IMG/VR virus record: IMGVR_UViG_3300030493_000343
Coordinates: 1 to 37,742 of that record
Direction: 5' to 3' (one strand)
Length of the DNA: 37,742 bases
Source of the DNA: a virus
Lineage: Duplodnaviria > Caudoviricetes
The notes beneath the pieces are model-generated. The model searched no databases. It saw only the letters and a list, made by a program, of their open reading frames with translations, and was not told where the DNA came from. This document shows positions 8,801 through 33,885 of this stretch, piece by piece. How positions within the stretch are numbered: position 1 is the stretch's first letter; every line of letters begins with the position of its first letter. Both the position numbers and the translations under genes were made by a program.

Positions 8801-11800
8801 TATTTTGGATGTCCAGGCGGGAAAGAAAACAGTTCTTTCCAACCAGCTTCTTGATGAAATTGAGAAAATTCATACCTCAGGCATCGTGCGGATTAAAGGT
8901 GACCGGAAGACCGGATTTCCCGGAATGGAGGTCCCGATCGATGAATATGTATCCATGATCAACAGCGATATGAGTGAAGCCGATAATAACGCAGCTGTGC
9001 TCATTCCTGAAGATGTTGCCCTAAATATCGAACAAGATCAGTTATCCCCTGAAATACTCAGCCAATTTGAAAACCTAATATTTGAAGGATATGAAAACAC
9101 CCAGCGACAAACCACAGGTACAGAACAACCCAATGCCCAGTCCGGCACAAGTGAAAGCGTACCTGAAACTTCGCAACCACAGGAATCTGAAAATGTTGAA
9201 GGAGAAGTACCGGAACAAGTAACCGACAGCATTTCAGAAGATGAAAAACCTGTTGAACCAGCCGGAGAAATTGATTCAGTCGAACAGGGAGAAAATACCC
9301 CAGAGGAAGAACAAAGGAAGGGAGTCAGCGAAGGATTGGAAGAAAAAGGGACACAGACTACCGCAAACCAGGTGACATCTGGTTTTAATGGTGATTTCCT
9401 TGCTTTAGCTAACCGGGTGATAGAGAATGATAAAATCAGGCAGGAAGAAGCAAAGGTCAATACAAATCCCTCTGAAGCGCAGAAAGAAGCCGGTAATTAT
9501 AAGAAGGGCCATGTCAGGACCCAGGGTTTTGATATCACCATCGAAAACCCCAAAGGATCCGTTCGTTCAGGAGTAGATGAAGATGGCCGGGCATGGGAGC
9601 ATACCATGCAGAATTCATACGGCTATTTCAAACGTACTGAAGGAAAGGACGGAGATCAGATAGACGTTTTTTTAGGCGATAATCCAACTTCCAAAAGAAT
9701 CTTAGTTGTTGACCAGAACAACCCATACACAGGCGAATTTGACGAGAGCAAAGTCATGTTAGCGTTTGATACCGCCCAGCAAGCGAAAGATGCATACATG
9801 TCAAACTATGAACCCGGTTGGACCGGATTCAGAACAATTACCGAAGTGCCGGTTGAGAAATTCCGGGAATGGCTGTATGACGGTGCCAGACAGAGGAAAC
9901 CGTTTTCGGAGTATAAAGGCATGTCAGATCTAGTTAAAATACAAAAAGAAAATAATAACTTTGAGGAAAACCAGATAGATGAAAGAGCGCAAACGTATAA
10001 AACCAAAGAAGGGCAAGAAATACAATATACCCTCCAATTTGGTGACTACGACAGGACAGGCACCGGTGACCTACAACGGAAAGATAATCAAAGACAATCC
10101 CCAAGTCTTAGAAAATTAAGGCCAGGCGAAATTTCATCTGTAGAGATGAAATACACCGCGGATAAAAATTTTGTATTCGACGGCCGGAACAAAATTGAAA
10201 GCACCGATGATGTTGCCTACCTTTTCAGGCAGCTTGAAAATAAGTCGGTGGAAAATATGTTTGCAGCCCTGATTGACGAAAAGGGAAAACCTACTATTCT
10301 GCATCTTTCCATGGGAGGCCGTGCCGGAACGGTGATTGATTTTGGTATCCTGTCCGATGCAATTCACCGCTTTAAGCCGAAAAAGGTTTATCTTTTGCAC
10401 AATCATCCCTCCGGAAACCTTCAGTATTCAGAGGCAGATATAAGGATGCATCAAAAAGCCCGTGACGCTTTTGGCCAAGACCTGATCGGAGAACATATCA
10501 TCATCAATACTACTTCAGGGCAATATGCCAGCTTTACGACCAGATATGACTATGAGATATCAGACCGTCCAATAGATGTTGAAAATGCCCGGAATTACCG
10601 TGTTTTGAAATTTGACAAACAGGTATTCAGAGAAAACACAGTACTGCCGGTACAGGTTACAGGTTCCGCTGATGTGGCAAAGTTTGTAACAGCACAGCGG
10701 TTTTCCGCAAAGGATAAGCAATCCGTACTGTTATTGAGCAGAAGCAATAACATTGTGGCTTATCTTCATATTTCTTCCACGGATTTTTCGTCAAAAGAAA
10801 GCGTTGAAAATCTCATTAAGGAATTACAGGCCTATGCCGGGCGTTTCGGGGCAAAAGGCATTATACTAACCGGAAAAATTCCTGATACAAAATCAAAGTA
10901 TGATGCTCAGGAGTTACAAAATTTCCGGATTGGTATCAGATCTCTAAAAACCAATCTTGAGAACCTGGATGTGTCCCTGTTGGATTATGTTTTTGTAAAA
11001 TCAGATCTGAACCATGAGTCTATGGTCGATGAAGGACTAATGGAACCGGAAGGGGAATACAGGCCTTTGGGCAGAATCACAGTTGACGGGATTGACCGGC
11101 CTGCAAAAAACAGTGAAGGAAAGACAATTCACCCCACGGAGTCGGGGATCAGAAATTTCTGGCGGTGGTTCTCTGATTTTGATAAAGCAAAACGCATCGA
11201 GAAGTTAAGAAATTCAAAACCCATTGAAATTACGGGTAATGAAATCACTCCAAGTGATGATCTGAAAGAGTATAAGAAGAACGCGCTGGAATATGGGAAG
11301 AAACTCCAAGGAGAATATATAAATAAAGATACCGGCGCAACTGTTATGTTGCAACGCGGAAGAAGGAACGGAGGAATAAATGAAGTACTGCAACATGATT
11401 ATAAAGATGTTGAACATCTACAGTCGATTGCCGCTATTCCGCAGATAATCGAAAATGGAATTTATATCGACAGTAGAGAGAACGATAATAAGGAAAAAAA
11501 TCCCGATGTTGCGCGATACGATTATTATGTTTCTGGGTTAAAGATTAGTAATGTTGACTATACTGTTCGTTCAAGCATTGCAATTGACACGAAAGGGAAC
11601 CGTTATTACGACCACAAGTTGACGCAGATAGAAAAAAGAAAACTGCTTGATTCACTTTCCGGAATAACAACTCCCGGGTTTAATCAAGCAGTTTATAACG
11701 GTTTTGGCACAACGCCCGGCACTAAGCCTACTACCGAATACAAAGATAAAAAATTACTTGATCTTTTACAAGTAAGGTCATCAAAAGTGATTGATGGCCA

Positions 11801-14800
11801 AGGAAGACCATTAGTTGTATACCACGGCAGTCCGGTAAAAGGCATCCAGACTTTTGACCTTAATAAATCAGGGCAGAATGTTCAGGGAGAAAGAGGTGCA
11901 GTTTTTTTCACCGACAACGAAAAATTAGCGGATGATTTTTCTTATGAGCGCCTTTCGACGAATGTTCCATTTAAAGATATAAAGGGTAAAAAGGGGCAGG
12001 TCTATCCTGTTTACCTGAGAATGATGAACCCGTTTGATCTTCGGAATATGACCCCGGAAATGGCTGAAATTCTGTCAAAAGAGGATGGATTGCTTTCTTG
12101 GGAACAGGTTATTGAATGGTCCAAAGTAAAGAACAGGCAGCTTATAAAGGCCGGATTACCTAAGCCATTGAGTAAGTTAGCCGCCTACGGCTATGATGGA
12201 GTGATAGCTGGTTTGAATGAGGGTGGTTCGGAATATGCCGTCTTTGATCCTTCGCAGATTAAATCAGTTGAAAATGAGGGAGCCATTGATTCAGAATTCT
12301 TCGATATCTTAGAAGAACAGAAAGCAGGATACTCAAAATCCAGCGGATCCACATCAAATAAAAATCAACCCGGAACAACTGAGCAGGCCCGTATTGAGTT
12401 GGACAAAAGGCTTAAAAATTTAAGGTTTCGTATCCGGGAAGCATGGGAAGACCGCCATTTGGCCGTAAAAAGATTTCTGGACCTTCTCCGTGAAAAAGGA
12501 ACTGAGATTCCCGAATATAACGACTATTACCTGCAGGCGACCCACATCAACGGTAAAATAGATGCACAGCTAAACCAGTATGACAGGAGCTTTCATGTGC
12601 CGCTTAATGATGCAATCCGTGACCTGGAAGACAATGGAGCCAGTTACAGGAGCATAGAGAACTATGCGATTCTCAAACACGGGCTGGAACGCAACGAATG
12701 GATGCGGCAAAAAGCCATTGATGATTTCATGGCTGCCAACCCTGATGCAACCTATGACCAGATTACAAAGTTTGAAGATCGTCTCCCGGATGACTTTTCC
12801 GGGATCACCGCAGTCCAGGAAGAGGTAGAGATGTCAGCCGAAGAATTCATAAGCGATTTCGAGGCCAAGACAGGCAGCCAAAAACTTCTTGATAATTTCT
12901 GGGGCAAAGTCAAAGAGGCCACATCGTTTGCACTAAAAAAGCAGCTTGAAGGCGGATTGATTGACAAGAAAACCTATGACGAACTTATTGCCCGTTACCG
13001 GTATTACATTCCCCTTCGCGGTCACGATGCAGAAACGGCGGAGGACAGGTGGGATTACAGTCCTGATATGGGGACCTACTTTTCTGCTCCTTTACTTGTG
13101 GCAAGGGGAAGAAAAACAAGGTCTGAAAGCCCGTTTGCCTTTATCAGTCAAATGGCTCAAAGCGCAGTTACTTCCTCCAACAGGAATTTGCTCAACCAAA
13201 CGCTGTTAAGACTGGCCGGTAAGGACAAAACAGGATTGTTAAAGGCAAGCAAAACATGGTATGTACAGGCCGGGGTTAACAACGAAGGGAAACCCGTTTT
13301 TGAATCCCGGTCTCCCGCTTACTCGGATGATGCCCAAACATTCAGAGAGAATATTGAGGAATTCGAAGAGCAGATGAAAAAACTGGCCGAACAGGGTCTT
13401 GCATTCCAAAGCGGAGCAAAGCTGAATATCGGCGGACTGTTTATTAAACCTTCACAGGCGGAGCAACACGAGGTTCATGTTTACCAGAATGGCGTTGAAC
13501 ACGTTGTTTACATTAACGCCAATCCTGCTGTGTCCAGGGCTATTACCGGCATGAATTCCAAAGATCTGCACAAGGATCTTCAATGGCTTGCTAAAAGATC
13601 GAAATGGATGGCGGCCAATTTTACCACGAGGAACCCGGTCTTTGTTTTATCTAACTTTTCCCGTGACTATATTTTTGCCTCGTCCATCCTTTCTGTGAAG
13701 GAAAATGCGCTGTATGCATTACAATTCCAGCGAAACATTCTGAAATCAGCCGGGGCGTTGCAGCGATATTTAAGAGGCAAAGCGGACCTGAGTAAAGCCG
13801 AGGACCGGTTTATGGTGGAATATATCATGAACGGGGCAAAGACCGGATTTTCTCACCTGGTAGAACTTCAGACAATCCAAAAGAAGATTGAGCGGGAACT
13901 GAAGAAAGGCGACAAAAAGAATGTCTTTAGATACCTGATTGATACGATTGGCTCTTTTAATGAGTTCGCGGAGAACTTATCCCGGTTATCGGTTTATATC
14001 ACCTCCCGGGAACAGGGCCGGGGTATTGTCCGGTCGGTTTCCGATGCGAAGGAAGTTACAGTAAACTTTAACCGCTCAGGTGCCGGAGGCTACGGATCCC
14101 AATGGATCAGGCCCCTTTATCTGTTTGTCAATGCAGGGATTCAGGCTTTGTCAAATTTTACCAAAGTAGCCGGGAAGAATCCCGGTAAGACAGCGCTCCT
14201 TGTTTCATCTTATGCCATGACCGGCTTTTTGATGCCCATGGTAGCTTCTCTTCTCGGCGGTGATGACGGACTGGATGAATACTTGAAACTGAGTGACTGG
14301 GAACGCCAGAATAACCTTTGCATATACACCGGTAAAGGTTTTATTAAGATCCCGTTACCTCACGAATTGCGGGTATTCAATAAAATGGGTGATGAGATTT
14401 ATCAGTCTGCATTCGGGCAAAAGGATGTGGCACAATCGATTCTTGATGTGTCGCTTGGATTTGCCGATCTTATTCCGGCCAATCCAATGGGATCACTGGA
14501 AATAGAATCCTGGTCAAACCTGCTTCCGGATGTATTTCGTCCCTTTGCCAACCTTGCCGAAAACAAAAACTTCATGGGCGGCAGGATATGGAATGAATGG
14601 GCTGATCCGAATAAACCGGGTTATTTAAAGGTAAGAACAAACAAACGGGGCGAACCATACGCGCCTTCTTTCCTGGTTCGGATTGCTGCCGATTTGGACC
14701 GGGCTACCGGAGGTGACGGGGTGGAAAAAGGACTGGTCAGTTTTAACCCCGATAAGCTGAATCATATCATGAGAGGATACTTCGGCGGGCTTTACAATGT

Positions 14801-15230
14801 GGCCCAACAAGGACTGGATATCGCAAGTAAAACCTACGACTGGACACAAACCGGAGAATTTGAGTTAAAGGCAAGGGAAACTCCCCTGCGCACTTTCTAT
14901 ACTTCTTCTGATGACCTGCAGGTGTCAGGTAATGGATTGAATTCTAAATATTACAAGGTATCCGGCCAAATGCAGGAAGTGGACAGAAAGATAAAGGGGT
15001 ACCGCGATCAGGCTGCATCCGGAGAATTAAGCCTTGGCGGGTTCTCTGACAAGATAAAAAGTATGGGGTCTGATGTGGAAAGATTAAAACGGACAGACCC
15101 TATTATTAAATCGATCAAACGATATGAAAGCTATCTCAAAGAGCTGAACGGACAGGACCAGAAGGAACTTGAAAAAGTAATCTCAAACTTAAAAAAAGAG
15201 GTAATCAGTATTAACAACCAAACAGAATAA
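5856..15230 (+). CDS. Large polyvalent virion protein (InPase, JAB/RadC x2, LPD3-like, ART-PolyVal-like, LPD38-like C-terminus)
   Basis: Motifs: PSEAQKEAGNYKKGH...ENPKGSVRSG...YGY...DGDQIDVF...FDESKVML (InPase, ~9456-9918); LLHNHPSG...SEAD (JAB, ~10190-10510); NKDTG...IPQIIENG...RYYDHKL (LPD3-like, ~11180-11640); GRPLVVYHGS...FFTDN...YPVYL...GYDGVI...EYAVFDPSQIKS (ART-like, ~11780-12290); TVNFNRSG...IKIPLPHEL...YFGG (LPD38-like, ~14050-14800). Confidence 0.88.
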   Translation: MPLYTSKGKIYDIPDNRVNAFLQARKDAKPFEKKKINLPPVPVPANEGLSFTPSQSSFSPSLKAEDTVATAMQNFDRLKAEQPNVPREKGFWNTWAGDAVEKLGEGTAWAGEGITRFANLPVKVYANTIANKEGMNPEEKYAFSKLMAASAANTLNVEMTADALKGVQEKLAGKADRYGGKDFADLWKAGDKSGAIGHIMLEGVKSLPMSIMAGVNPGVGLSVIGAASTGQKYEDLSDTEKPSAFASSKEWQDYRSNMSMGELAKVSNAFLSGAAEAGSELLGSIPIFGWLGRTYAKLGGKATGDIVKKGVKKWMDGMFDRYGLLLAPIAEGNEEVANKVAENTIDYLTGARTDFKPFEGTGESFVYGAGGGAQFSVAALPGVIANRFTGKRQTDMPTVPEISIQDQVNTRMQQVQQAIRESANPDMGAVVSAIVQGGEQPVRITGGRIVTRQDGSIDRENSDKQIFYIDEQGNKKVTSIDFVEEIAENMPLPDALNYAGQTIQDEFRAEQENAAVRPYEVNETVTADMGNGITFTGQITAVDDQGMYVVTDAQTGQQVTIEPRQIVDQDNIQGVENGSVVDYMDDQGNERTGTVDDAHGVRPQGLVIIDGEGIPIEKILGLTEQRKAEQATQTHGQPMSAPPIKAIRLGKDSFDFKQNDDGSFTFVPSEKLDADSALEKLEKEFKDNKKWEVVAGKEQIEVPPANPFQDPTLQTVVKSIQIRRKNNQNATQPTGGDNNLSKSEVDPGLKAEAEAETKPSYSFNGKDVSKDYVHGVIEDAQSKEDLAGLTYRNDPDIDAMIEKKFPAPKTTYRIGKTEVSRDRALARIDMAGTQEQLEELKIGNDPQMQQAYNAKLAEFRERDDQAQAEINRKHDKLVSMMQSYNQISPAERRRINTASMMQLASELGYYVKYENGNGVRIFRNGTEIRRNADRLSNDEIQSHRSLSDYDEPVQKLAGSLLLPLNVEGVEIGTMQPKEINQAILDVQAGKKTVLSNQLLDEIEKIHTSGIVRIKGDRKTGFPGMEVPIDEYVSMINSDMSEADNNAAVLIPEDVALNIEQDQLSPEILSQFENLIFEGYENTQRQTTGTEQPNAQSGTSESVPETSQPQESENVEGEVPEQVTDSISEDEKPVEPAGEIDSVEQGENTPEEEQRKGVSEGLEEKGTQTTANQVTSGFNGDFLALANRVIENDKIRQEEAKVNTNPSEAQKEAGNYKKGHVRTQGFDITIENPKGSVRSGVDEDGRAWEHTMQNSYGYFKRTEGKDGDQIDVFLGDNPTSKRILVVDQNNPYTGEFDESKVMLAFDTAQQAKDAYMSNYEPGWTGFRTITEVPVEKFREWLYDGARQRKPFSEYKGMSDLVKIQKENNNFEENQIDERAQTYKTKEGQEIQYTLQFGDYDRTGTGDLQRKDNQRQSPSLRKLRPGEISSVEMKYTADKNFVFDGRNKIESTDDVAYLFRQLENKSVENMFAALIDEKGKPTILHLSMGGRAGTVIDFGILSDAIHRFKPKKVYLLHNHPSGNLQYSEADIRMHQKARDAFGQDLIGEHIIINTTSGQYASFTTRYDYEISDRPIDVENARNYRVLKFDKQVFRENTVLPVQVTGSADVAKFVTAQRFSAKDKQSVLLLSRSNNIVAYLHISSTDFSSKESVENLIKELQAYAGRFGAKGIILTGKIPDTKSKYDAQELQNFRIGIRSLKTNLENLDVSLLDYVFVKSDLNHESMVDEGLMEPEGEYRPLGRITVDGIDRPAKNSEGKTIHPTESGIRNFWRWFSDFDKAKRIEKLRNSKPIEITGNEITPSDDLKEYKKNALEYGKKLQGEYINKDTGATVMLQRGRRNGGINEVLQHDYKDVEHLQSIAAIPQIIENGIYIDSRENDNKEKNPDVARYDYYVSGLKISNVDYTVRSSIAIDTKGNRYYDHKLTQIEKRKLLDSLSGITTPGFNQAVYNGFGTTPGTKPTTEYKDKKLLDLLQVRSSKVIDGQGRPLVVYHGSPVKGIQTFDLNKSGQNVQGERGAVFFTDNEKLADDFSYERLSTNVPFKDIKGKKGQVYPVYLRMMNPFDLRNMTPEMAEILSKEDGLLSWEQVIEWSKVKNRQLIKAGLPKPLSKLAAYGYDGVIAGLNEGGSEYAVFDPSQIKSVENEGAIDSEFFDILEEQKAGYSKSSGSTSNKNQPGTTEQARIELDKRLKNLRFRIREAWEDRHLAVKRFLDLLREKGTEIPEYNDYYLQATHINGKIDAQLNQYDRSFHVPLNDAIRDLEDNGASYRSIENYAILKHGLERNEWMRQKAIDDFMAANPDATYDQITKFEDRLPDDFSGITAVQEEVEMSAEEFISDFEAKTGSQKLLDNFWGKVKEATSFALKKQLEGGLIDKKTYDELIARYRYYIPLRGHDAETAEDRWDYSPDMGTYFSAPLLVARGRKTRSESPFAFISQMAQSAVTSSNRNLLNQTLLRLAGKDKTGLLKASKTWYVQAGVNNEGKPVFESRSPAYSDDAQTFRENIEEFEEQMKKLAEQGLAFQSGAKLNIGGLFIKPSQAEQHEVHVYQNGVEHVVYINANPAVSRAITGMNSKDLHKDLQWLAKRSKWMAANFTTRNPVFVLSNFSRDYIFASSILSVKENALYALQFQRNILKSAGALQRYLRGKADLSKAEDRFMVEYIMNGAKTGFSHLVELQTIQKKIERELKKGDKKNVFRYLIDTIGSFNEFAENLSRLSVYITSREQGRGIVRSVSDAKEVTVNFNRSGAGGYGSQWIRPLYLFVNAGIQALSNFTKVAGKNPGKTALLVSSYAMTGFLMPMVASLLGGDDGLDEYLKLSDWERQNNLCIYTGKGFIKIPLPHELRVFNKMGDEIYQSAFGQKDVAQSILDVSLGFADLIPANPMGSLEIESWSNLLPDVFRPFANLAENKNFMGGRIWNEWADPNKPGYLKVRTNKRGEPYAPSFLVRIAADLDRATGGDGVEKGLVSFNPDKLNHIMRGYFGGLYNVAQQGLDIASKTYDWTQTGEFELKARETPLRTFYTSSDDLQVSGNGLNSKYYKVSGQMQEVDRKIKGYRDQAASGELSLGGFSDKIKSMGSDVERLKRTDPIIKSIKRYESYLKELNGQDQKELEKVISNLKKEVISINNQTE
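9091..9222 (+). CDS. Candidate nested +1-frame mini-ORF (43 aa) inside the polyvalent gene
   Basis: MKTPSDKPQVQNNPMPSPAQVKAYLKLRNHRNLKMLKEKYRNK*. Overlies a low-complexity linker; near-consensus AATATTTG at 9077-9084. Confidence 0.35.
   Translation: MKTPSDKPQVQNNPMPSPAQVKAYLKLRNHRNLKMLKEKYRNK
9979..10119 (+). CDS. Candidate nested +1-frame mini-ORF (46 aa) with its own promoter
   Basis: MKERKRIKPKKGKKYNIPSNLVTTTGQAPVTYNGKIIKDNPQVLEN*. Perfect TAACTTTG -7 element at 9956-9963, 15 nt upstream; fills the InPase-JAB linker. Confidence 0.5.
   Translation: MKERKRIKPKKGKKYNIPSNLVTTTGQAPVTYNGKIIKDNPQVLEN
11631..11736 (-). ncRNA. Candidate structured antisense sRNA inside the polyvalent gene
   Basis: Minus-strand TTG-N20-TATCTTTG promoter (11771-11741); perfect 13-bp inverted repeat 11640-11652/11682-11694 followed by a U tract; inner 6-bp stem with a 7-nt loop. 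Confidence 0.6.
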
Positions 15231-15232
15231 TC

Positions 15233-17203
15233 ATGATCAAGGCAAACGTTAAGCTGGCTGCAAAGTATTTCCCTAAAGAGAAAAAGGACAGGGAGAAGAT
15301 TGACACGGCAAAAAGCGGGGATACCAGGAAAAACAATATTGTTTTAATGGACGCCTTTACTGCATGGACGGGGCTCGACTCTTTCAGGAAAATGGCCGAA
15401 AGAAACAAAATGTACACCTTTTCGGATCAATGGGGAGACCGGATTCCTAATCCGGACGGTCCGGGATCGATAACCGAACGCCGGAATATATTGAATCAGG
15501 GCAGTATACCGCTTCAAAATAACAGGATCCGCGGAATTGCCCGGTCCGTTATTGGTGTTTTTCAAAGTATGCAGACTGAACCGGTGTGTACGGCCAGAGA
15601 CCGGGATGAGCAGTCTGACGGGGAAATGATGTCCGCTACCCTCCAGTACGTTTACCAGCGTAACAAGTTGTGGGGATTGGATAGCAATTGCCTTTTGTAT
15701 TTTATCGTTACCGGCGTTGGCGCTTTTAAAAGCACATGGGGGTGGAGGAACGGCTCCATGGATGTTTGGGATAACCTGGTTAATCCGAACAGGTTGTTTT
15801 TTGACAACCATATGCAGGATCCCCGCCATTGGGACTGCCATTTGATCGGTGAAATACACGACGTGGGCCTGTATGACGTGATGGCGCAATTCTCACACGG
15901 CTCGCGTGAAAAAGCAGAAGAAATACGAAGGATCTATGCCGGTTGCAACAGGGAGCGGACAATCGCCTATGTGGATAACCTGAGGGAAAACCTAAGGAAT
16001 CATTTGGATTTCTTTATCCCCACCGATGAGACCAGGTGTCGGGTGATCGAAATATGGAAGAAAGAAAGCAAAGAAAGGCTGTTGGTCCATGATGCTTTGA
16101 CCGGAGAGTTCTACAAAGCTGAACTGGAAGATGAGCGCAAATTAACCCAAGAGAATAAAATCCGCAAGGCAGATCAGGCAGCCCAGGGAATTGCGCCCAA
16201 AGATATGAAGCTGATAAAATTCGTTTGGTTTATCGATAACTACTGGTATTACTATTACATGTCGCCGCAGGGCGATGTTCTGGATGAAGGAGAAACACCT
16301 TTCTGGCATGAATCACACCCATATTCATTTAAGGTGTACCCCTTCTATGATGGTCAGGTTTTCCCGTTTGTCAGCGACTTTATTGATCAGAACCGTTACA
16401 TTAACCGGCTGATCACTTTACAGGACTTTGTTATCCGATCATCTGCCAAAGGTGTACTGGCCGTCCCGGATGACCTGCCTGACGGGTGGCCCATAGAGCG
16501 ATATGCCAGCGAATGGGCCAGGTATAACGGTGTTATCCTCTTTAAGGCAAAGCCAGGCGTCCCGTTGCCACAGCAAATTGTTTCCAACGTATCGCAGTTA
16601 GGAATAACGGATATGCTCTCGATCCAGCTTAAACTACTCGAGGACATATCCGGAGTACAGGGAGCGCTGCAAGGGCAGGCGCCCAAAGCAGGAACGCCAG
16701 CATCTCTTTATATGCAGCAAACGCAGAATTCATCAACATCCCTTACCGAAATATTTGAAGCATTCCGGGAATTAAGGGAAGAACGGGATATGAAGAATAT
16801 GAAGCTGATCCAGCAGTTCTATACCGAGCCACGGTATATTAATATCAGCGGGAACAGTGCACAGGGCAAAAGGATGGTGTATAATCCGCAAAAGGTCCGG
16901 AATGCCGAATTCGATCTTTCGATAACAGAAAGTACTTCTACCCCTGCCTATCGGATGGTTATGAATGACTTTTTGATGCAGATATACAATACCGGCCAAA
17001 TATCCCTGGAAGAAGTACTTCAAAACGGGGCTTTCCCGTTTGCCGATAAGTTGCTGCAGTCGATCAAGGCGCGCGGCGGTCAGATAGGTGCCGGCAATGT
17101 AGCTCCTGAAGGCGGACAGGTCGTGCCGCAGGATATCGGGCAGCAAGTTATGCAGGGTACAAGCCCGATCGTTCAGCAGATGTTAACCAGAAAAGCCGCT
17201 TAA
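15233..17203 (+). CDS. Portal protein (P22-like)
   Basis: 656 aa; SDQW...IPLQNNRIRGIARSVIG, FIDQNRYINRL, LLEDISGVQGALQG, FDLSITESTSTPAYR patterns of P22-type portals. Confidence 0.85.
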   Translation: MIKANVKLAAKYFPKEKKDREKIDTAKSGDTRKNNIVLMDAFTAWTGLDSFRKMAERNKMYTFSDQWGDRIPNPDGPGSITERRNILNQGSIPLQNNRIRGIARSVIGVFQSMQTEPVCTARDRDEQSDGEMMSATLQYVYQRNKLWGLDSNCLLYFIVTGVGAFKSTWGWRNGSMDVWDNLVNPNRLFFDNHMQDPRHWDCHLIGEIHDVGLYDVMAQFSHGSREKAEEIRRIYAGCNRERTIAYVDNLRENLRNHLDFFIPTDETRCRVIEIWKKESKERLLVHDALTGEFYKAELEDERKLTQENKIRKADQAAQGIAPKDMKLIKFVWFIDNYWYYYYMSPQGDVLDEGETPFWHESHPYSFKVYPFYDGQVFPFVSDFIDQNRYINRLITLQDFVIRSSAKGVLAVPDDLPDGWPIERYASEWARYNGVILFKAKPGVPLPQQIVSNVSQLGITDMLSIQLKLLEDISGVQGALQGQAPKAGTPASLYMQQTQNSSTSLTEIFEAFRELREERDMKNMKLIQQFYTEPRYINISGNSAQGKRMVYNPQKVRNAEFDLSITESTSTPAYRMVMNDFLMQIYNTGQISLEEVLQNGAFPFADKLLQSIKARGGQIGAGNVAPEGGQVVPQDIGQQVMQGTSPIVQQMLTRKAA

Positions 17204-17778: not shown

Positions 17779-17958
17779 TCATTTTAGTAGTTCAATCAGT
17801 TTTCCGTTCATTCCTCCCCTACTCCTTACTTTCCTTTCCCTGGCCAGCTGGTTTAGTTCGTTTCGCCCGGGTTCTCCAAACTTGTTCAGTACCTCTACCA
17901 GGCGAAAGAACGGCCAGCCGGTTAGGGCATATTCTTTATTTAAAAATTCTTCTACCAT
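17779..17958 (-). CDS. Small protein, possible winged-helix (59 aa; missing from the ORF track)
   Basis: MVEEFLNKEYALTGWPFFRLVEVLNKFGEPGRNELNQLARERKVRSRGGMNGKLIELLK*. Overlaps the rhomboid 3' end and fills the gap to the terminator. Confidence 0.55.
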   Translation of the reverse strand: MVEEFLNKEYALTGWPFFRLVEVLNKFGEPGRNELNQLARERKVRSRGGMNGKLIELLK

Positions 17959-18463
17959 CGGGAAATCTCATTTCCTTTATTAATCGACAGCATGCGTAGA
18001 TAAATATTCCCGTCAAAAAAGACAGTGAGTGAAGGATATGATTGCTGGTTTTACTAAGAGAGCTGACGGTTAAGGCGATAACCACTGTTGTCAGGAATAT
18101 CACGTACTTTCTTAAGTTTAAAATCTTAATCCCGTTACTGAAAGCTGTTATGCCAACATACAGCCCGGTCATCATATAGATCATGCCGGAGGCGCCAACG
18201 GTTGGAAGATCATCAGCTGCAAGAAATGATAACAGAAATCCTCCGGTCAAGGAAGCTAAAATAAGGATCCATTTACTGATTAGTCGTTCCGTGGCACGGA
18301 AGATTCCCACAAAAGCCAGCGAGTTGACCATTAAGTGAATTAAACCTGCATGCTGAAACAAGTAGGTGATATGAGTATAAAATGGCGATGTGTTTGTGTA
18401 TCCCAGCTCGCTCCCAAAGAAGACATATACCAGGATAAATACAAGTACGAATACATATTTCAT
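17936..18463 (-). CDS. Rhomboid family intramembrane serine protease
   Basis: FQHAGLIHLMVN (HxxxxHxxxN), catalytic VGASG, His in the last TM (NHILHSLSFLTG); about 6 hydrophobic segments. Confidence 0.88.
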   Translation of the reverse strand: MKYVFVLVFILVYVFFGSELGYTNTSPFYTHITYLFQHAGLIHLMVNSLAFVGIFRATERLISKWILILASLTGGFLLSFLAADDLPTVGASGMIYMMTGLYVGITAFSNGIKILNLRKYVIFLTTVVIALTVSSLSKTSNHILHSLSFLTGIFIYACCRLIKEMRFPDGRRIFK

Positions 18464-18846
18464 ACAAGGCTCGGCTTTTTAAGGAGTTGATAGTACAGAT
18501 TCATGGCCCGGGGAGCTGATATGTAAAACCGCGGGGCGCTTTGTTCTGAAATGATCCTTGCTATTTGAGAAACAGCCATTTGTGGATTCTCTTTTGACAG
18601 CTCGATATGCCGGGTATAAATCTCGGTGTAAAGGTCATACTTTGCATCTAATCTTGGTCTGGCATGCCTGGCCCTTCGAATGATCACATAACAGGCACGG
18701 GCAGAAAGGTAGAATGACTTTGCGGGATGATGGATGGCCTTTTTTACAATATCAGAAACAGATATGTAAGACCCCGATTCTTTGCGTATCGACTCACATA
18801 CGTTAAAGAAATCTTCGTTTCGTTCTTCTTCGTAGAATAATCTCAT
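18460..18846 (-). CDS. Putative DNA-binding regulator with internal duplication
   Basis: ATG 18846. Repeats SVSDIVKKAIHHPAKSFYLS / AVSQIARIISEQSAPRFYIS; TAATTTTG at 18859-18852; 4-nt overlap with the rhomboid start. Confidence 0.55.
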   Translation of the reverse strand: MRLFYEEERNEDFFNVCESIRKESGSYISVSDIVKKAIHHPAKSFYLSARACYVIIRRARHARPRLDAKYDLYTEIYTRHIELSKENPQMAVSQIARIISEQSAPRFYISAPRAMNLYYQLLKKPSLV

Positions 18847-18899
18847 GTTCACAAAATTACAGGGACGCAAAGTTTTCTTTCGGGTGATGGGGGTGTTTG

Positions 18900-18931
18900 T
18901 TTTCGACATTGGAAACGGCACTTTTCGACAT
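18900..18931 (+). promoter_or_regulatory. Tandem TTTTCGACAT motifs (copies 2 and 3) in the divergent promoter region
   Basis: Exact copies at 18900-18909 and 18922-18931 (22-bp period); degenerate TTTTCGCACC at 18941. Confidence 0.6.
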
Positions 18932-19010
18932 GGGTAGCTGTTTTCGCACCAATGACTTACAAAGGAGTTGTGATTTCTTTTTTTTGCTGTGAGTAATTAA
19001 AAAATTTATC

Positions 19011-19775
19011 ATGGCTGATATTGAAAAAGAAATGACAAATGACCCCCCGAAGGGGCGTGCAGCTATCCTGGGAATGTACAAATCGGCCAACCCTGATATG
19101 CAGGATGATCCGGACGATGACAATCTTTTGGGATTTGCCCACGAACGATACTCGGACCTTGAAGGAAGGCATAAATCATTAAGCGATGCCAATACCAGGC
19201 TGGCGGACCGGATCGCCAAAGATCCGAAACTGGCTGCTGTAATTTCCATTCTTCTTGGAGATGAACCCAAATCACTTCCCTACGCTGTTGCCAATGTTTA
19301 CGGGAAAGAACCCTTCGACCTGGAAGGGGAAGCTCTTAACGACTTTGAGACGGGGTATCAGGAAAACCTGAGCCGGTTGGCTGAAAGCGAAAAATTGCAG
19401 GCTCAGGCCATGGAAAATATTGCCAAATACCAGGAACGGCTTGAAAAATACGGGAAAGACAATTCCCTGACTGAAGATCAATTGGACCAGGTACACAATG
19501 CCGTTGTGCAGATGGCTGAAAGCATCCTGATGGGAGATATTCCCGACAACCTCATTGATTTGGCCCATAAGGGACTAAGCTATGACAAAGATGTGCAGGA
19601 GGCCGCACAAACCGGGATGATTGAGGGAAAGAACCAAAAGATCGAGGCCAAAATGAAGGAGAAAACGGAAAGCGCCCCTGTTCCTGACCTGGGGAATTCC
19701 TCCGGTGCGGGGAGGAATAAACCGGGACAAATGAAAAAGAACAAAAGCTTTTTTGATGAATTAAAAGATGTTTAA
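19011..19775 (+). CDS. Putative capsid scaffolding protein
   Basis: Acidic, coiled-coil 254-aa protein directly upstream of the capsid gene. Confidence 0.65.
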   Translation: MADIEKEMTNDPPKGRAAILGMYKSANPDMQDDPDDDNLLGFAHERYSDLEGRHKSLSDANTRLADRIAKDPKLAAVISILLGDEPKSLPYAVANVYGKEPFDLEGEALNDFETGYQENLSRLAESEKLQAQAMENIAKYQERLEKYGKDNSLTEDQLDQVHNAVVQMAESILMGDIPDNLIDLAHKGLSYDKDVQEAAQTGMIEGKNQKIEAKMKEKTESAPVPDLGNSSGAGRNKPGQMKKNKSFFDELKDV

Positions 19776-19791
19776 TAATAAATTGACTAAA

Positions 19792-21153
19792 ATGAAAGAT
19801 CTGTTTAAGAAACTTAAAGACAGTGGATTGCTGTTATTTGTATTCATGCTGCTTTGCTCCTTTTTCGGAGTAAGTGACGGCGGTATGCTTACGGCCGAGG
19901 CCATTCTTCCTGCCGGTGGTGGTGCTGTTGAAACTGACGCCATGGTTACTGCAACGGAAACCAGGACCAATTCGCCGGATTTACTTCTTGATACTATTGA
20001 TAAAAAGGTTACCAAAATACGGCCTCATGACGTCGTATTGGATACGATTTCGCGGCATACCGGAGATGTTAAAACCAGCGACAACCAGACTGTGCGGCAT
20101 TACGCGATCGATGTAATTGATATGACTGCCACACTTACCGCCGCTTATGCCGGCGGTGATTCCCAGACAGCGCTGACCACATCAAATAACAAGGTCTTTG
20201 CCAGTGAGCAAACCATTATATGTTTAGGTGTTTCAGGCTATAAAGATGATCATGTTACGGTTGATCCCGACCACGATCTGATGCTGTATGTTACAGGTCA
20301 CGACGCCGCAAAGAAGCCGCTGGTTACAGCAGTCAACGGGACGGGCGCTGATGGTATGACAATACCGGCCATTGCACTGAATACCGTTTTACTTAGGGGT
20401 GGCAGGGCCGGATCTGAAACCCAGATCCAGACTGATCCTTATTCCGGAGTTCCGACAGACTTTACGCAGTACCTGCAGAAGTTCATGGCCCAGGTTGAAA
20501 TGTCTGAAATCTTTAAACGTGCAGATAAGGAGACAGACTGGGAGTTTACCGATGCAGAGGAAGAAGCTGTTTTTGATATGAAACGTGTTCAGAATGTGTC
20601 GTATTGGAAGGGCAAAAAAGGACGTATCAAGGTTACCAACAAGCACAATAAAAAGGATGAAGATGTTTACTTTACTGAAGGGATATGGACACAGGCCGGA
20701 AAAGAATTTGACTTCGACGGTACTGTGACTATCAATAAGATGGTAACGTTTATGAAGACCAGTTTTACAGGGAATGCTTCGGGGAAGAAAAAGGTATTCA
20801 TCGTCGGGAGCGATCTGCTCGAAAAGCTGGAACAGGTTGAGTATAACAGGATCGTGTATGTTGGCGAGAGGCAGAAGGCTCACGGGCTTGAATTCAGTTC
20901 TATCGTGTCAAAATTCGGGATGCTGCTTATCGCTCACGACCAATCTTTGGACGATATCGGAATGTCTGCCTGCGGGTTTGTTCTTGACGCCGACTTCCTG
21001 CGTAAATGGACAATGGGCTGGAAGGTTAACAACTTCGACTTCCGTAAATCCGGGCAGTCCGACTCTGATGGCCGGGGTCTGATTGAGCCTTGCGGATTGG
21101 TTCTTAAGAATCCGAAAGCGCACGTTCGTGTTTACTTTAACAAAGTGGCATAA
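19792..21153 (+). CDS. Major capsid protein with N-terminal hydrophobic leader
   Basis: Follows the scaffold. IDKKVTKIRP..VLDTI, TQYLQKFMAQVEMS, EEEAVFDMKR...YWKG, YFTEGIW, KFGMLLIAHD and C-terminal CGLVLKNPKAH fit HK97-fold (SU10/DUF5309-like) capsids. Alternative start at 19768. Confidence 0.8.
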   Translation: MKDLFKKLKDSGLLLFVFMLLCSFFGVSDGGMLTAEAILPAGGGAVETDAMVTATETRTNSPDLLLDTIDKKVTKIRPHDVVLDTISRHTGDVKTSDNQTVRHYAIDVIDMTATLTAAYAGGDSQTALTTSNNKVFASEQTIICLGVSGYKDDHVTVDPDHDLMLYVTGHDAAKKPLVTAVNGTGADGMTIPAIALNTVLLRGGRAGSETQIQTDPYSGVPTDFTQYLQKFMAQVEMSEIFKRADKETDWEFTDAEEEAVFDMKRVQNVSYWKGKKGRIKVTNKHNKKDEDVYFTEGIWTQAGKEFDFDGTVTINKMVTFMKTSFTGNASGKKKVFIVGSDLLEKLEQVEYNRIVYVGERQKAHGLEFSSIVSKFGMLLIAHDQSLDDIGMSACGFVLDADFLRKWTMGWKVNNFDFRKSGQSDSDGRGLIEPCGLVLKNPKAHVRVYFNKVA

Positions 21154-25417: not shown

Positions 25418-25873
25418 ATGAAAGCTATGATTATTGTTATATGGATTGCCTTCGCCATGTACGCCCTGGTCTTTTTAGCGGTTATGGCAGACTTATGGTC
25501 CGGCGTTAGAAAAGCCAGGATTTTAGGCAAAGCCAGAACCTCATACGGATTAAGAAGGACAGTGGAAAAGATGGTTAAATACTATAATCTTCTTCTGATC
25601 CTGTCAATCATTGACTGTATGCAGATTGTCTGCATCTGGTACCTGGACACCTATTACGGGTTTACAATCCCGCTGATCCCCATTATAACTATTGTGGGCG
25701 CCATTGGTGTCGGGCTTATCGAGCTTAAATCGATCTATGAAAAGGCGGATGACAAGGAACTCCGGAAAATTACCGAACTCACCGGGAGCATTATCTCCAA
25801 TAAGGATGACCTGAAAAAGGTTACTGCATCTATTATCGATTACCTGAAAAACGAGAACAATGAAACTGTCTGA
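25418..25873 (+). CDS. Holin (phage holin 4-like)
   Basis: TM segments, ADLWSGVRKA...TSYGLRRTVEK...IELKSIYEK; overlaps the lysozyme start. Confidence 0.85.
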   Translation: MKAMIIVIWIAFAMYALVFLAVMADLWSGVRKARILGKARTSYGLRRTVEKMVKYYNLLLILSIIDCMQIVCIWYLDTYYGFTIPLIPIITIVGAIGVGLIELKSIYEKADDKELRKITELTGSIISNKDDLKKVTASIIDYLKNENNETV

Positions 25874-26390
25874 GAAAGGCCTTGAATTCCTGAAATGTTA
25901 CGAAACCCTCCATGACGGAGATCTTAGTATGATCGGATTGCAACCCAAACCTGACGCCGCGGGTATCTGGACGGAAGGGTACGGGCATGCAATGGTTCTG
26001 AACGGTAAGTTTCTGGACATAAAGAAATATCCGACTCTGTCCGGCGTTCTGCCGTTTGCGAAAGTTAGGACCGAAAAAGAAGCGGAAGGGTTATTAAAAA
26101 AGGATGTTGCTGTCAGGGAGGCACAGGTTAACAGCTGGCTGAAAGTAACACTGGAACAAAACCAGTTTGACGCTCTCCTGCTCCATACCTTCAACTGCGG
26201 GAAAAGCGATACCCTTTACAGGCTGATCAACGCCAAAGCCGATGAGAAGGCGCTCAAGGATTGGTGGATTAACCATTATACGACAGCTTCCCAAAAGGAG
26301 TTGAAGGGGCTGAAACTTCGCCGGTTGGACGAGTGGGAAGCATGGGCCTGCGGCGATTATCTCAGGGGATATAATCTTAGGGCAGCATGA
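25860..26390 (+). CDS. Endolysin, GH24 lysozyme
   Basis: SEKGLEFLKCYE...DAAGIWTEGYGH, LEQNQFDALL..FNCG, LKGLKLRRLDE. Confidence 0.9.
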   Translation: MKLSEKGLEFLKCYETLHDGDLSMIGLQPKPDAAGIWTEGYGHAMVLNGKFLDIKKYPTLSGVLPFAKVRTEKEAEGLLKKDVAVREAQVNSWLKVTLEQNQFDALLLHTFNCGKSDTLYRLINAKADEKALKDWWINHYTTASQKELKGLKLRRLDEWEAWACGDYLRGYNLRAA

Positions 26391-26881
26391 AAAACATTGT
26401 CTTAATACTGATGATTGCGTTGGCCGGCTGCCATGGAAGAAAACAGCTTGTCTCAGTTTCCTGTCTGGATCTGAAAGACAGTACCCGGATTGAGGCTAAT
26501 CTCGATGCCGGAACATTAAAAGCCGCTTTGAGACAGATCCAGCGAACAGAGAGAAGGCAAATACAGGCAGATGAAAAGAAAGCGGTCACGGAGTCGAATA
26601 ACGAAGTTAGGAATAACGCTATCCATGCAAAAGCCGATGTGAAGAATAACCGGATCGATTCAGGTGTGGAAAAAGGGCAGACAAACGCGGATGTGAAAAA
26701 GGAAAAGGCAAAGGCCGGTGTGGAGAAAGCAAAAGCGAAATGGCTCCCCAATACGCTAAAATGGGGATCTGCTTTTCTGCTTGTCCTGCTTGGCGCGTTC
26801 ATTTACATTAAGAAAAAGACCAGTATCCTGACAAAGATAAAAAGTATTGGGACCTGGCTGTTTAAAATCATCAAATCTTGA
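26387..26881 (+). CDS. Putative unimolecular spanin
   Basis: Lipobox LAG-C15 plus a C-terminal TM (WGSAFLLVLLGAFIYI-KKK), directly after the endolysin. Confidence 0.65.
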   Translation: MKNIVLILMIALAGCHGRKQLVSVSCLDLKDSTRIEANLDAGTLKAALRQIQRTERRQIQADEKKAVTESNNEVRNNAIHAKADVKNNRIDSGVEKGQTNADVKKEKAKAGVEKAKAKWLPNTLKWGSAFLLVLLGAFIYIKKKTSILTKIKSIGTWLFKIIKS

Positions 26882-28977
26882 TCGATGCAAGCAAAATAGT
26901 AGAAGAGAACCTCCGCAGGCGGAAAAGACTAAACAGCCCTTATGATCAGATGACTGGGGAAGGGTGCCAGGGAGAAAGGGTGCGACTGGAAATAAAGGAC
27001 GCTCCCTTTCCCGTTTTATTTATCCCGGAGCCGATGATGCAGGAAGAGGTTTGTAAGTTGCTGCAGGAACATGGCTCTATCAGGGAGGTTTATAAAAGCT
27101 TCGGAGTTAAAGAGGTAACAGAAGAACTCTGGTCGGACTTCTGGATTAGCTTTTGCGAACTGCGATATAAGTATGACTTTGAGTTTTTTGCTATTACCTG
27201 CATCACCATCCGGGATAAAATTTCAGCAAGGGATATTCCCTTTAAATTAAACAGAGGGCAAAGAAGGTTATTGGACCGGTTGGAAGGAATGCGAACAGCT
27301 AACGTTCCGATCCGTATTATGGTGCTTAAGGCACGGCAGTGGGGAGGATCTACCCTTATTCAGCTTTACATGTTCTGGATCCAGATGATCCATAAACGGA
27401 ACTGGAACAGCGTGATCTGTGCTCACATCAAAGACGGTGCAATCACGATCCGGGCCATGTTTGAACGGGCCATCAAAAATATGATCCCGGTTAGTGGCAT
27501 TTGGCATGTGATCAAAAACTACCAGAATACCCAAAATATCAAAGAAGTGCCTGAGCGCGGATGCCTGATAACGGTAGGAACTGCGGTAGAACCTGACTCT
27601 GTCCGTTCCCAGGATGCCAAGATGGTCCATTTTTCTGAAATGGCGTATTACCCCAACACGGACAATAACAACCCCCAGAAACTTGAAACCTCTATTGTGG
27701 GGTCGATCCCGGCAGAGCCTTATACGTTGGTTGCCCGGGAAAGTACGGCAAATGGTGTTGGGGATTACTTTTATGAAGAATGGGAAAAGGCAAAGATGGG
27801 AGAAACAGCCTATGACGCGGTGTTTGTGGAATGGTTCCTGATCAACATTTACAGCCGGGATTTTAACGGGTACTATTTTCTTCATAACGGGAAAAAGAAG
27901 AAAGGGAGCACAGAAGACTTTATCAGGTCAATGAATGAATACGAGATCAACCTTTTTAATAATAAACCGGATTGTACCCTTGAAAATATCAACTGGCGAA
28001 GGTTAAAAAGAGCGGAAGTGCCATCGGAGGCAACCATGAAACAGGAATACCCCTCTGACGATATCGAAGCCTTCCAGGATTCCGGATTGCCTGCATTCAG
28101 GTCTGAAGATGTAGAGGCATTAAGGAAAGACTGCCGTCTTCCGGAAGCAATTGGCGAACTGGTTTCAGACTGTCCTGCTGCCCTGGCAAAGCTGGAACCA
28201 AAAAGAAGAAAGGAAATACTGTCGAATATCCGGTTTGTTGAAAACAAAGATGCACTGGAGGACATCCAGACTTCCGATCCAAAATTGAAGGCCCGTGGTG
28301 AAAGAGATAAGTTAAAGGTATGGGAGTTCCCGGATACGTCCTTTAAAGTGAGCAACCGCTATGTTGTTGTCTTTGACCCGCAGAAAGGACTTTCAGAAAA
28401 GGCAGACTGGGGTGTTATCGCGGTGTTTGACCGGTATTGGATGAAGTATGGCGGCGTTCCGGAGATTGTTGCTGAATGGCGTGGCAGGGTTGACAAGGAT
28501 AACGCTATTTGGATTGCGGCCATGGTTGCTGAATTTTACAACAACGCCCTGCTGGTTGTGGAAAGCAATACATACGATACGGACGATAAGGAAGACGATG
28601 CCGAATTTATCTTTGATACGATCACTGATTACTACGGGAATCTATATTCCAGGACTCCGGCAGACAAGATCCGGGAAGGAGCGCCCATCGAATACGGCTT
28701 TCATACAAACCGGAGTACAAAGCCGATGATCGTTGGGAATTTTGTCGCTTTGCTCCGCGAGAGAGGATATAAGGAAAGAAACCCGGAGGCGCTTAACGAA
28801 GCAAGGGTTTATGAGAAAAAACAGAATGGAAAATATGGCGCCAAGGAAGGAAAGCACGATGATATTATAATGACCCGGATGATTGGTGGGCATATCTGTT
28901 ATAAATTACCCCTTCCGGCTGTTATTGAAGAAATGAAATATACTCCCGCAAGGCTTGTTGGAGAATCAAGTATATGA
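26878..28977 (+). CDS. terL: Terminase large subunit
   Basis: Walker A VLKARQWGGST, Walker B VHFSE, ESTANG motif, nuclease motifs VVVFDP, LVVESN, GKHDD; TTG start overlapping the spanin stop. Confidence 0.93.
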   Translation: MIDASKIVEENLRRRKRLNSPYDQMTGEGCQGERVRLEIKDAPFPVLFIPEPMMQEEVCKLLQEHGSIREVYKSFGVKEVTEELWSDFWISFCELRYKYDFEFFAITCITIRDKISARDIPFKLNRGQRRLLDRLEGMRTANVPIRIMVLKARQWGGSTLIQLYMFWIQMIHKRNWNSVICAHIKDGAITIRAMFERAIKNMIPVSGIWHVIKNYQNTQNIKEVPERGCLITVGTAVEPDSVRSQDAKMVHFSEMAYYPNTDNNNPQKLETSIVGSIPAEPYTLVARESTANGVGDYFYEEWEKAKMGETAYDAVFVEWFLINIYSRDFNGYYFLHNGKKKKGSTEDFIRSMNEYEINLFNNKPDCTLENINWRRLKRAEVPSEATMKQEYPSDDIEAFQDSGLPAFRSEDVEALRKDCRLPEAIGELVSDCPAALAKLEPKRRKEILSNIRFVENKDALEDIQTSDPKLKARGERDKLKVWEFPDTSFKVSNRYVVVFDPQKGLSEKADWGVIAVFDRYWMKYGGVPEIVAEWRGRVDKDNAIWIAAMVAEFYNNALLVVESNTYDTDDKEDDAEFIFDTITDYYGNLYSRTPADKIREGAPIEYGFHTNRSTKPMIVGNFVALLRERGYKERNPEALNEARVYEKKQNGKYGAKEGKHDDIIMTRMIGGHICYKLPLPAVIEEMKYTPARLVGESSI

Positions 28978-29723: not shown

Positions 29724-29984
29724 ATGGCGGTATTACAGGTAACGGCGAGACAGTTCAGGGAGAAACAAAAAAGCTTCTTCGAACTGGCGGACAAGGGGCA
29801 AAAAGTAATCATCAAAAGGGGCAGGAAACAGGCCTATGTACTGACCCCGATTGATGACGACGACTTGTATTTTACCCCGGAAATGCTCGAAAAAATAGAC
29901 CGCTCGATGCGGCAGGCCCGGGAAGGAAAAGTAACAACGGTAGAGACAGAAGAAGAGCTCACGAAATTTCTTGACAGTTTATGA
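29724..29984 (+). CDS. Phd/YefM family antitoxin
   Basis: VTARQFREKQKSFFELADKGQKVIIKRG Phd fold; ATGA overlap with the toxin. Confidence 0.88.
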   Translation: MAVLQVTARQFREKQKSFFELADKGQKVIIKRGRKQAYVLTPIDDDDLYFTPEMLEKIDRSMRQAREGKVTTVETEEELTKFLDSL

Positions 29985-30256
29985 GCTACAAAATCTGCTT
30001 TACGCAGGAGGCTGCAGAGGACCTTTCTAAGCTAAAGAAAAATGAACCGGCAGCGTTCAAAAAAGCTGAAGAACTTCTCAGGGAACTAAGAGAACATCCC
30101 CGTACAGGAACGGGGAGACCCGAACAAATGAAGCACGGGTACAAAGGATGCTGGTCAAGACGGATCACGCAAAAACACCGCATGGTCTATTCCGTTGACG
30201 ATGAGAAAATAACTGTCTTGGTTATTTCAGCCATGGGCCACTATGGTGATAAATAG
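29981..30256 (+). CDS. yoeB: Txe/YoeB family toxin
   Basis: HPRTGTGRPEQMK...WSRRITQKHRMVY...GHY. Confidence 0.93.
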   Translation: MSYKICFTQEAAEDLSKLKKNEPAAFKKAEELLRELREHPRTGTGRPEQMKHGYKGCWSRRITQKHRMVYSVDDEKITVLVISAMGHYGDK

Positions 30257-33196: not shown

Positions 33197-33411
33197 TATT
33201 GCTTAAGTGGTTAATGATAAATTTTTTATGCGTTTCCTGATTAAAATATGATCATGATTGTTTTGAGAAGATGATTAAGATTTTTTCCTTATGTTCTATT
33301 TGAATTCCCATTTAGTTACCGTAACTTTCATTTGACCTTTATGATTTACAAATAGATAGAATTGTTAGTCCGATCTTTAAAAGATTGCAAAACCATCAAA
33401 AACAAACCTTT

Positions 33412-33885
33412 ATGGGAAGACAAATAGTCACCGAAAAAGACCTGTCCTATTTTTATGAGTTGGAAGATTCAGTTGCATCTTCAAGGGAATATGCAAGATC
33501 AGAAGAATCACAGGACAAAGAGAACATTAAAGTCGTAAGCATCGAAAGTAAGGACGATTATTTTAATCGGCTGTTGAAATATATTCCGGCAGAAATTGTT
33601 GGATTATATCTCACTCTTGCTAATATCACAAACACGCAATCTGTTGCTGAATGGATTAGCTGGTTTGTTTTTGTCGTTTGCTTGTTATTGACTCCGTTAT
33701 ACCTCTGGAGAGTATTGAAAGTAATGAAGTCCACCCAACTCATTATCTCCACCTTATCTTTTGTGGTTTGGAGTTACGCTATTGGAGGCCCTTTTGAACA
33801 AAGTGGATTGTTTAACAATGTTTTTGCTGCAATTCTTTTGCCGATCTACACGGTACTAATCCCAATTATTAAACCTGAAAATTGA
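33412..33885 (+). CDS. Moron: 4-TM membrane protein
   Basis: DYFNRLLKYIPAEIVGLY...LLTPLYLW...SFVVWSYAIGGPF; opposite strand to neighbours, AT-rich; ATG 33412. Confidence 0.75.
   Translation: MGRQIVTEKDLSYFYELEDSVASSREYARSEESQDKENIKVVSIESKDDYFNRLLKYIPAEIVGLYLTLANITNTQSVAEWISWFVFVVCLLLTPLYLWRVLKVMKSTQLIISTLSFVVWSYAIGGPFEQSGLFNNVFAAILLPIYTVLIPIIKPEN

Follow-up and report, generated by a model that had tools for sequence, protein, structure and literature searches.

The DNA analysed here is the viral record IMGVR_UViG_3300030493_000343 (Duplodnaviria; Caudoviricetes), and the window refers to this whole stretch of 37,742 nucleotides (nt). The record has a completeness of 58% and encodes a P22-like portal, a polyvalent protein of 3124 amino acids (aa), a gp7/gp14-like ejection protein, a lysozyme and a large terminase (TerL, gene terL), a layout which points to a short-tailed temperate phage. 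The host group is probably Bacteroidales-type, as three isolated Bacteroides phages share the module considered here. This module combines a gene for a predicted rhomboid protease, which lies between the portal and scaffold genes on the opposite strand, with a gene for a major capsid protein that starts with a hydrophobic leader (Table 1).

Table 1. Coordinates of the features at and around the rhomboid and capsid genes of the window
Feature	Position (nt)	Strand	Remarks
P22-like portal protein	15233..17203	+	no membrane segment
Predicted rhomboid serine protease, six-helix, minimal, 175 aa	17936..18463	-	S92 codon 18188-18190; H145 codon 18029-18031
153-aa conserved helical phage protein, phrog_27246	18460..18921	-	upstream of the rhomboid gene, 4-nt overlap
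Scaffold-like protein, 254 aa, phrog_22323	19011..19775	+	no membrane segment
Capsid leader, residues 1-35	19792..19896	+	n-region 1-12; hydrophobic 13-27 (19828-19872)
Major capsid protein, 453 aa, SU10_MCP family, HK97 fold	19792..21153	+	
Large terminase (terL)	26878..28977	+	away from the rhomboid operon, which terL follows in most relatives

The rhomboid open reading frame (ORF) matches PF01694 over the family cut-off (E 3.4e-10), and its AlphaFold2 (AF2) model, with a predicted local distance difference test score (pLDDT) of 94, retrieves mostly GlpG entries in Foldseek (template modelling score up to 0.74). The serine of a GASG motif (Ser92) is accompanied by His145, and each of the residues H38, H43, N47, G90, S92 and H145 is present in 52/52 non-redundant rhomboids of relatives, although these average ~25% column identity. 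These features bear out the preliminary description of this DNA, which had read the ORF as an intact minimal rhomboid. The gene is under purifying selection, with a ratio of nonsynonymous to synonymous substitution rates (dN/dS) of 0.18 over 35 pairs that are near saturation and not fully independent. The WR motif, a loop 1 feature of rhomboids, is absent from the window protein and not conserved in the rhomboid alignment (A6). Since basic residues concentrate in loops 2 and 4 and at the C-terminus, both in the window protein and in the mean over 31 aligned proteins, the predicted orientation is the usual one with the active site towards the periplasm. The protein is 17-22% identical to four host Bacteroidales rhomboids, and no NCBIfam model matched it. 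A tblastn search with the single window rhomboid found no match in the phage collection, although three records carry the gene; single-sequence negatives were therefore distrusted and a profile was used. A profile search of 86 sequences found 73 rhomboid ORFs, window duplicates counted.

The preliminary description had placed the rhomboid where prohead proteases usually lie. Its location between portal and scaffold was confirmed, but the gene is transcribed away from scaffold and capsid. Since the rhomboid and 153-aa genes lead as a pair into terL in three isolated relatives, as in most relatives overall, we assign the rhomboid gene to a divergent packaging operon and not to a co-transcribed prohead-protease slot. 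The three relatives are the Bacteroides temperate phages BS-TP4, BKO1-TP3 and BF1-TP2, in which the same module, with rhomboid and leader, is found and the rhomboid keeps its position, while their capsid proteins are 32-36% identical to that of the window. Since rhomboid distances track capsid-core distances (rho 0.70, 52 clusters of related loci), the gene appears to be inherited as a core gene rather than an accessory gene, which makes it an intact predicted protease co-inherited with the head genes. An accessory function, including the superinfection exclusion offered earlier as an alternative, is at odds with the fixed place before terL and with vertical inheritance. In agreement with the preliminary description no canonical prohead protease was recognised: none of the S78, S49 or U9 types was found among 30 window ORFs scanned from this 58% complete record, nor in the annotation of the complete relative BS-TP4 or a Pfam scan of 40 of its 62 genes; these scans revealed no further protease besides the rhomboid either.

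The common view of HK97-fold capsid proteins is that they are soluble and that soluble proteases mature them. The capsid protein of the window, for which the ORF finder opens at 19768 while homologues begin at 19792, matches SU10_MCP (E 5e-23), and its best Foldseek matches are the capsid protein of Vibrio phage VP1 (E 3e-21) and those of crAss001, SU10 and HK97. It is an HK97-fold protein in a portal-scaffold-capsid module, in which the scaffold role of the 254-aa protein is suggested by position and acidic helical make-up. As the preliminary description had stated, the protein starts with a membrane-like segment: the best 15-residue hydropathy is 2.79 (residues 13-27), compared to at most 1.46 elsewhere in the protein. 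The leader consists of a basic n-region, the hydrophobic segment, a Gly/Asp turn and a short M-L-T-A limb followed by Glu. A hydropathy of at least 2.0 was found in 116/120 close homologues, the other four being one fragment, two calls from an inner Met and one protein with a foreign N-terminus. The capsid family comprises 334 representatives at 50% identity (E up to 1e-30), and by eye most full-length proteins among the best 150 of these also carry the leader. The AEA cleavage site considered earlier is not conserved, the family pattern being G-x-M-[MT]-A followed by D, E, A or N. Of 401 sampled host-phylum genomes, 3 gave a capsid match; one locus (L047), a lone capsid gene adjoining a transposase in host DNA, was dropped.

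A start at a downstream Met, named in the preliminary description as a case that would speak against its reading, is unsupported. When in each group the Met with most upstream A was taken, the upstream AT fraction was 0.80 at the leader start (A at -3 in 28/51) and 0.43 at the inner Met (A at -3 in 8/44), while leaderless relatives reach 0.76 at their new start, i.e. the context was gained there. For the leader dN/dS is ~0.30, compared to 0.06 for the capsid core (35 pairs, again near saturation and not fully independent), and in 19 leaders the segment searched for an inner Met contains none. Judged from sequence, the leader is translated and under purifying selection, because its start context is AT-rich and its dN/dS is 0.30.

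Genomic context was compared for the window and 288 loci, of which 262 were retained after removal of window duplicates, two loci with poor capsid matches and those with a cut or short capsid gene. The retained loci form 141 clusters at 90% identity; in 13 of these the upstream flank was too short for judging the rhomboid, and the clade of leaderless P0257 as well as the A8 clade lie outside the counts. Rhomboid and leader occur together in 52 clusters, and no cluster has a rhomboid without a leader. Neither is present in 30 clusters, one near a terminase and 29 without. The leader was lost on up to nine tree branches, all of them rhomboid-free. Eight lie within one clade, which comprises real prophages as well as a chromosomal cluster that lacks a terminase and occurs in Muribaculaceae and kin; in these terminase-less loci the rhomboid is found in 0/80 and the leader is missing in 43/80. 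The ninth loss (L231) is nested among rhomboid-bearing phages: the gene order passes from the 153-aa gene straight to terL with the rhomboid gene cleanly missing, the leader has lost its hydrophobic stretch, and portal, terL, scaffold and capsid genes are intact. The L231 head module (L231:5429-7066), which looks intact and may serve as a natural control, also encodes a capsid protein with a C-terminal extension of ~80 residues.

The end of the leader differs with the presence of the rhomboid. Among leaders with an identifiable start and anchor, an acidic residue follows the conserved Ala in 29/48 with the rhomboid versus 0/15 and 0/23 in two rhomboid-less sets, but we treat this as a lead and not as a test, because the anchor pattern was picked with the sequences already in view, and relatedness is not accounted for in the Fisher tests. 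Sister contrasts for the acidic residue run in the same direction (7/10 versus 0/26 and 3/3 versus 0/11). Rhomboid-bearing leaders end in a short G-V-M-M/T-A limb with Val at -4 in 37/48, and the mean hydropathy of the second limb is 1.07 with and 1.9 without the rhomboid. In several rhomboid-less leaders 35-47 uncharged residues with a Pro/Gly turn follow one another, a run long enough for two membrane helices.

We propose, as a reading with about even chances, that the leader holds the capsid protein in the membrane and that a cut in the leader by the phage rhomboid releases capsid protein or procapsid to the cytoplasm. The 35-residue leader would form a hairpin or re-entrant loop that anchors the capsid protein in the inner membrane, with both the N-terminal end of the leader and the capsid domain inside. 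The first limb would go out and the second return in N-out to C-in direction, which would place the Gly/Ala/Asp turn near the outer face, where the rhomboid active site is expected. A cut at the turn would leave few hydrophobic residues, too short to anchor, so that the capsid protein or procapsid would be free in the cytoplasm. Where the phage rhomboid has been lost, host proteases may substitute, in Bacteroidales possibly the two tandem rhomboids, and the longer second limbs of rhomboid-less leaders would suit host rhomboids. The idea of the preliminary description that the rhomboid releases or matures membrane-tethered capsid subunits is thus supported in part; it left the topology unaddressed, and since the rhomboid faces the periplasm and the N-terminal end of the leader is basic, it works only with a hairpin or re-entrant leader, which would reconcile the N-in charges with the rhomboid preference for N-out substrates. 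While the family-wide feature is real, a membrane step in head maturation is plausible and predicted. Somewhat more tentatively, a large, common family of Bacteroidota phages of the short-tailed type may build HK97 heads from membrane-anchored precursors, with maturation carried out by an intramembrane protease of its own. If true, this would be a new head-assembly route in a widespread group of gut phages, and it would provide a natural phage enzyme-substrate pair with a minimal enzyme, where natural substrates of prokaryote-type rhomboids are few.

Several observations weigh against this proposal. The coupling is one-way, as the leader is found without rhomboid in 18 clusters near a terminase and in 28 without terminase; of the independent distribution that the preliminary description regarded as counter-evidence, one half is therefore observed, yet the rhomboid never occurs without the leader (52/52). 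In an environmental clade the rhomboid is absent from all 44 metagenome loci and both viral loci, many with terL abutting, full-length members retain long leaders, and all its 12 clusters are among the 18. An 11-kb fragment (L220) has likewise kept the leader with the rhomboid locally absent, and the 18 also include a prophage clade, in 4 records of which, one of them 93% complete, the rhomboid profile detected nothing while the positive control was detected. Moreover, a single clade of terminase-less chromosomal clusters accounts for 29/30 double losses, and relaxed selection there explains them as well as coupling does. No specific co-evolution of leader and rhomboid was seen, the partial correlation being 0.31 compared to 0.25 for the scaffold and 0.21 for the 153-aa gene. 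The caveats on the leader-end counts given above belong here too.

The topology of the leader raises further difficulties for release by the rhomboid. The n-region has a charge of at least +1 in 51/51 leaders and the c-region of at most 0 in 49/51, which favours N-in, C-out, while bacterial rhomboids favour N-out substrates (PMC2941825, PMC7232013). The canonical single-span substrate topology (N-out, C-in) is not matched; in a hairpin, this direction would apply to the second limb alone. Since scaffold, portal and terminase are all free of membrane segments and export signals, head assembly should be cytoplasmic; the main weakness is that simple N-in insertion would place the capsid domain in the periplasm. 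The second limb of rhomboid-bearing leaders is weakly hydrophobic (1.07), and the hairpin is therefore marginal where the model needs it. The substrate motif of a small P1 with hydrophobic P4 and P2' (PMC2941825) can be placed by eye at V27/G30/M32 as well as in other registers, but sequence of this kind matches it too easily. A complex prediction for the rhomboid and capsid residues 1-52 scored 0.01 and is counted neither way.

It is doubtful, though worth serious consideration, that host proteases remove a membrane-anchor leader in all members and that the phage rhomboid cuts other late targets, such as holin-like, spanin-like, ejection or host membrane proteins. The 18 phage-like clusters with a leader but no phage rhomboid fit this explanation, as do the tandem host rhomboids found in 50/50 genomes searched (50 of the 80 loci), the four other window proteins with membrane segments (25418-25873, 26387-26881, 33385-33885 and 33995-34651) and an unrelated 175-aa rhomboid in the moron region of Stenotrophomonas phage DLP3 (PMC7326821). 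However, it leaves unexplained why 0/52 rhomboid-bearing clusters are without the leader, why L231 lost both, and why the leader end shifts. We judge it improbable that the leader does not bind membranes but acts as a hydrophobic assembly peptide, which has no relation to the rhomboid and, much as a small delta domain would, packs against the scaffold or adjacent subunits. The AF2 model, with a free low-confidence helix at residues 12-24, and the persistence of leaderless capsid proteins would agree with such a peptide, but a separate scaffold gene is present, and the basic-hydrophobic-polar layout is kept while the sequence drifts faster than the core, as in membrane-targeting peptides.

It appears very improbable that the leader is a genuine Sec signal peptide, which signal peptidase I removes and which exports the capsid protein to the periplasm. 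Packaging requires cytoplasmic DNA and ATP, and portal, scaffold and terminase have no export signals. The leaders do show a basic n-region, a hydrophobic h-region and a polar c-region with the N-in/C-out charge pattern, and a small residue stands at -3 of the conserved Ala in 13/15 and 17/23 rhomboid-less leaders. In rhomboid-bearing leaders, however, this holds for 11/48, with other small-x-small sites upstream, while 37/48 have a bulky residue, and the statistical Bacteroidetes Q rule is followed by 2/92 leaders compared to 30/65 host secreted-like proteins. For Porphyromonas phages, a capsid leader was classed as Sec/SPI by SignalP (PMC10367356 supplement). A lipoprotein leader was rejected, as the lipobox cysteine is found in 0/51 rhomboid-bearing and 0/17 rhomboid-less phage leaders. 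Hardly credible is an inner Met as the source of most capsid protein, with the long form minor or not made: 44 rhomboid-bearing leaders have such a Met near the leader end and leaderless relatives begin at about that place, but the initiation context is missing, 19 leaders have no such Met and the leader is selected, and an internal main start was rejected.

The window rhomboid shares with GlpG of E. coli and H. influenzae and with AarA (MEROPS S54, PF01694) the six-helix fold, the GxSG serine, the histidine of transmembrane helix 6 and the usual orientation, but it is phage-encoded, 175 aa long and without a soluble domain. Trimming by AarA activates TatA. AarA cleaves an N-terminal extension of TatA (PMC2941825), while in the proposed capsid substrate the hydrophobic stretch lies N-terminal to the cut, which would require a hairpin or looped-back binding as proposed for Star (PMC2941825). 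T4 builds its prohead on the inner membrane, and release follows a maturation cleavage by which the capsid protein loses its N-terminal part (PMC9958956). In T4 the attachment is by the portal and gp21 is a soluble protease inside the prohead, whereas in the proposed route the capsid protein would carry the anchor and a membrane-resident protease would do the cutting. In the proposed Nixviridae, phages of Porphyromonas gingivalis, a signal peptide is predicted on the HK97-type capsid protein, and its removal by a phage protease was proposed (PMC10367356). This capsid protein belongs to another family (668 aa, phrog_21862) with an adjoining S49 prohead protease (PMC10367356), and the word rhomboid is absent from the main text of that paper and from the phage annotation file examined. 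Gene 28 of phage016a (219 aa), which follows the Nixviridae capsid gene, has a long basic-hydrophobic-Gly/Ala leader resembling the long leaders here (PMC10367356 supplement 3), and leaders of this kind may be widespread among Bacteroidota virion proteins. Rhombosortase and GlyGly-CTERM likewise pair a dedicated rhomboid with a basic, hydrophobic, Gly-rich terminal signal, but that signal is C-terminal and on exported proteins, while here it is N-terminal and on a capsid protein. BS-TP4 was detected in 31.3% of 930 gut viromes (PMC12694917); the Bacteroides phage rhomboid is annotated in the records and the supplement without mention in the main text of PMC12694917, and the capsid gene is labelled DUF. 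A search by title and abstract, with most subscription journals outside its reach, found no paper on a rhomboid-capsid pairing, and a rhomboid-matured head of a tailed phage would be an undescribed route.

Among the neighbouring genes, that for the 153-aa protein directly precedes terL in relatives without rhomboid and is retained even in the terminase-less chromosomal clusters; from position the protein may be a small terminase or late regulator. ESM Atlas gave no family for this protein and none for the capsid leader, and promoter scans gave results at chance level. In the window terL stands after the lysis genes, detached from the 153-aa and rhomboid genes.

The terminase-less loci (L088-L167, e.g. 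L123:9466-14338 of Paramuribaculum intestinale DSM 100749) are chromosomal mini-clusters of scaffold-like, capsid, adaptor, portal and 153-aa-like genes without rhomboid, with terL within 10 kb in 1/80 loci and housekeeping genes around. Their neighbours vary, a U32 peptidase-like gene being present in 14/76. A scan confirmed at least 544 stretches, of which not all need be the mini-cluster. They look like a domesticated capsid module, possibly one akin to a gene transfer agent, and our literature search found no description of such a mini-cluster.

Elsewhere in the window, the 3124-aa polyvalent protein (5856-15230) combines InPase, JAB, LPD3, ART-PolyVal and LPD38 domains, and a toxin-antitoxin pair of the YefM/YoeB type lies at 29724-30256. 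A gene for an MMPL/RND-family membrane protein at the left end (225-2771) probably marks the border of the prophage with host DNA.

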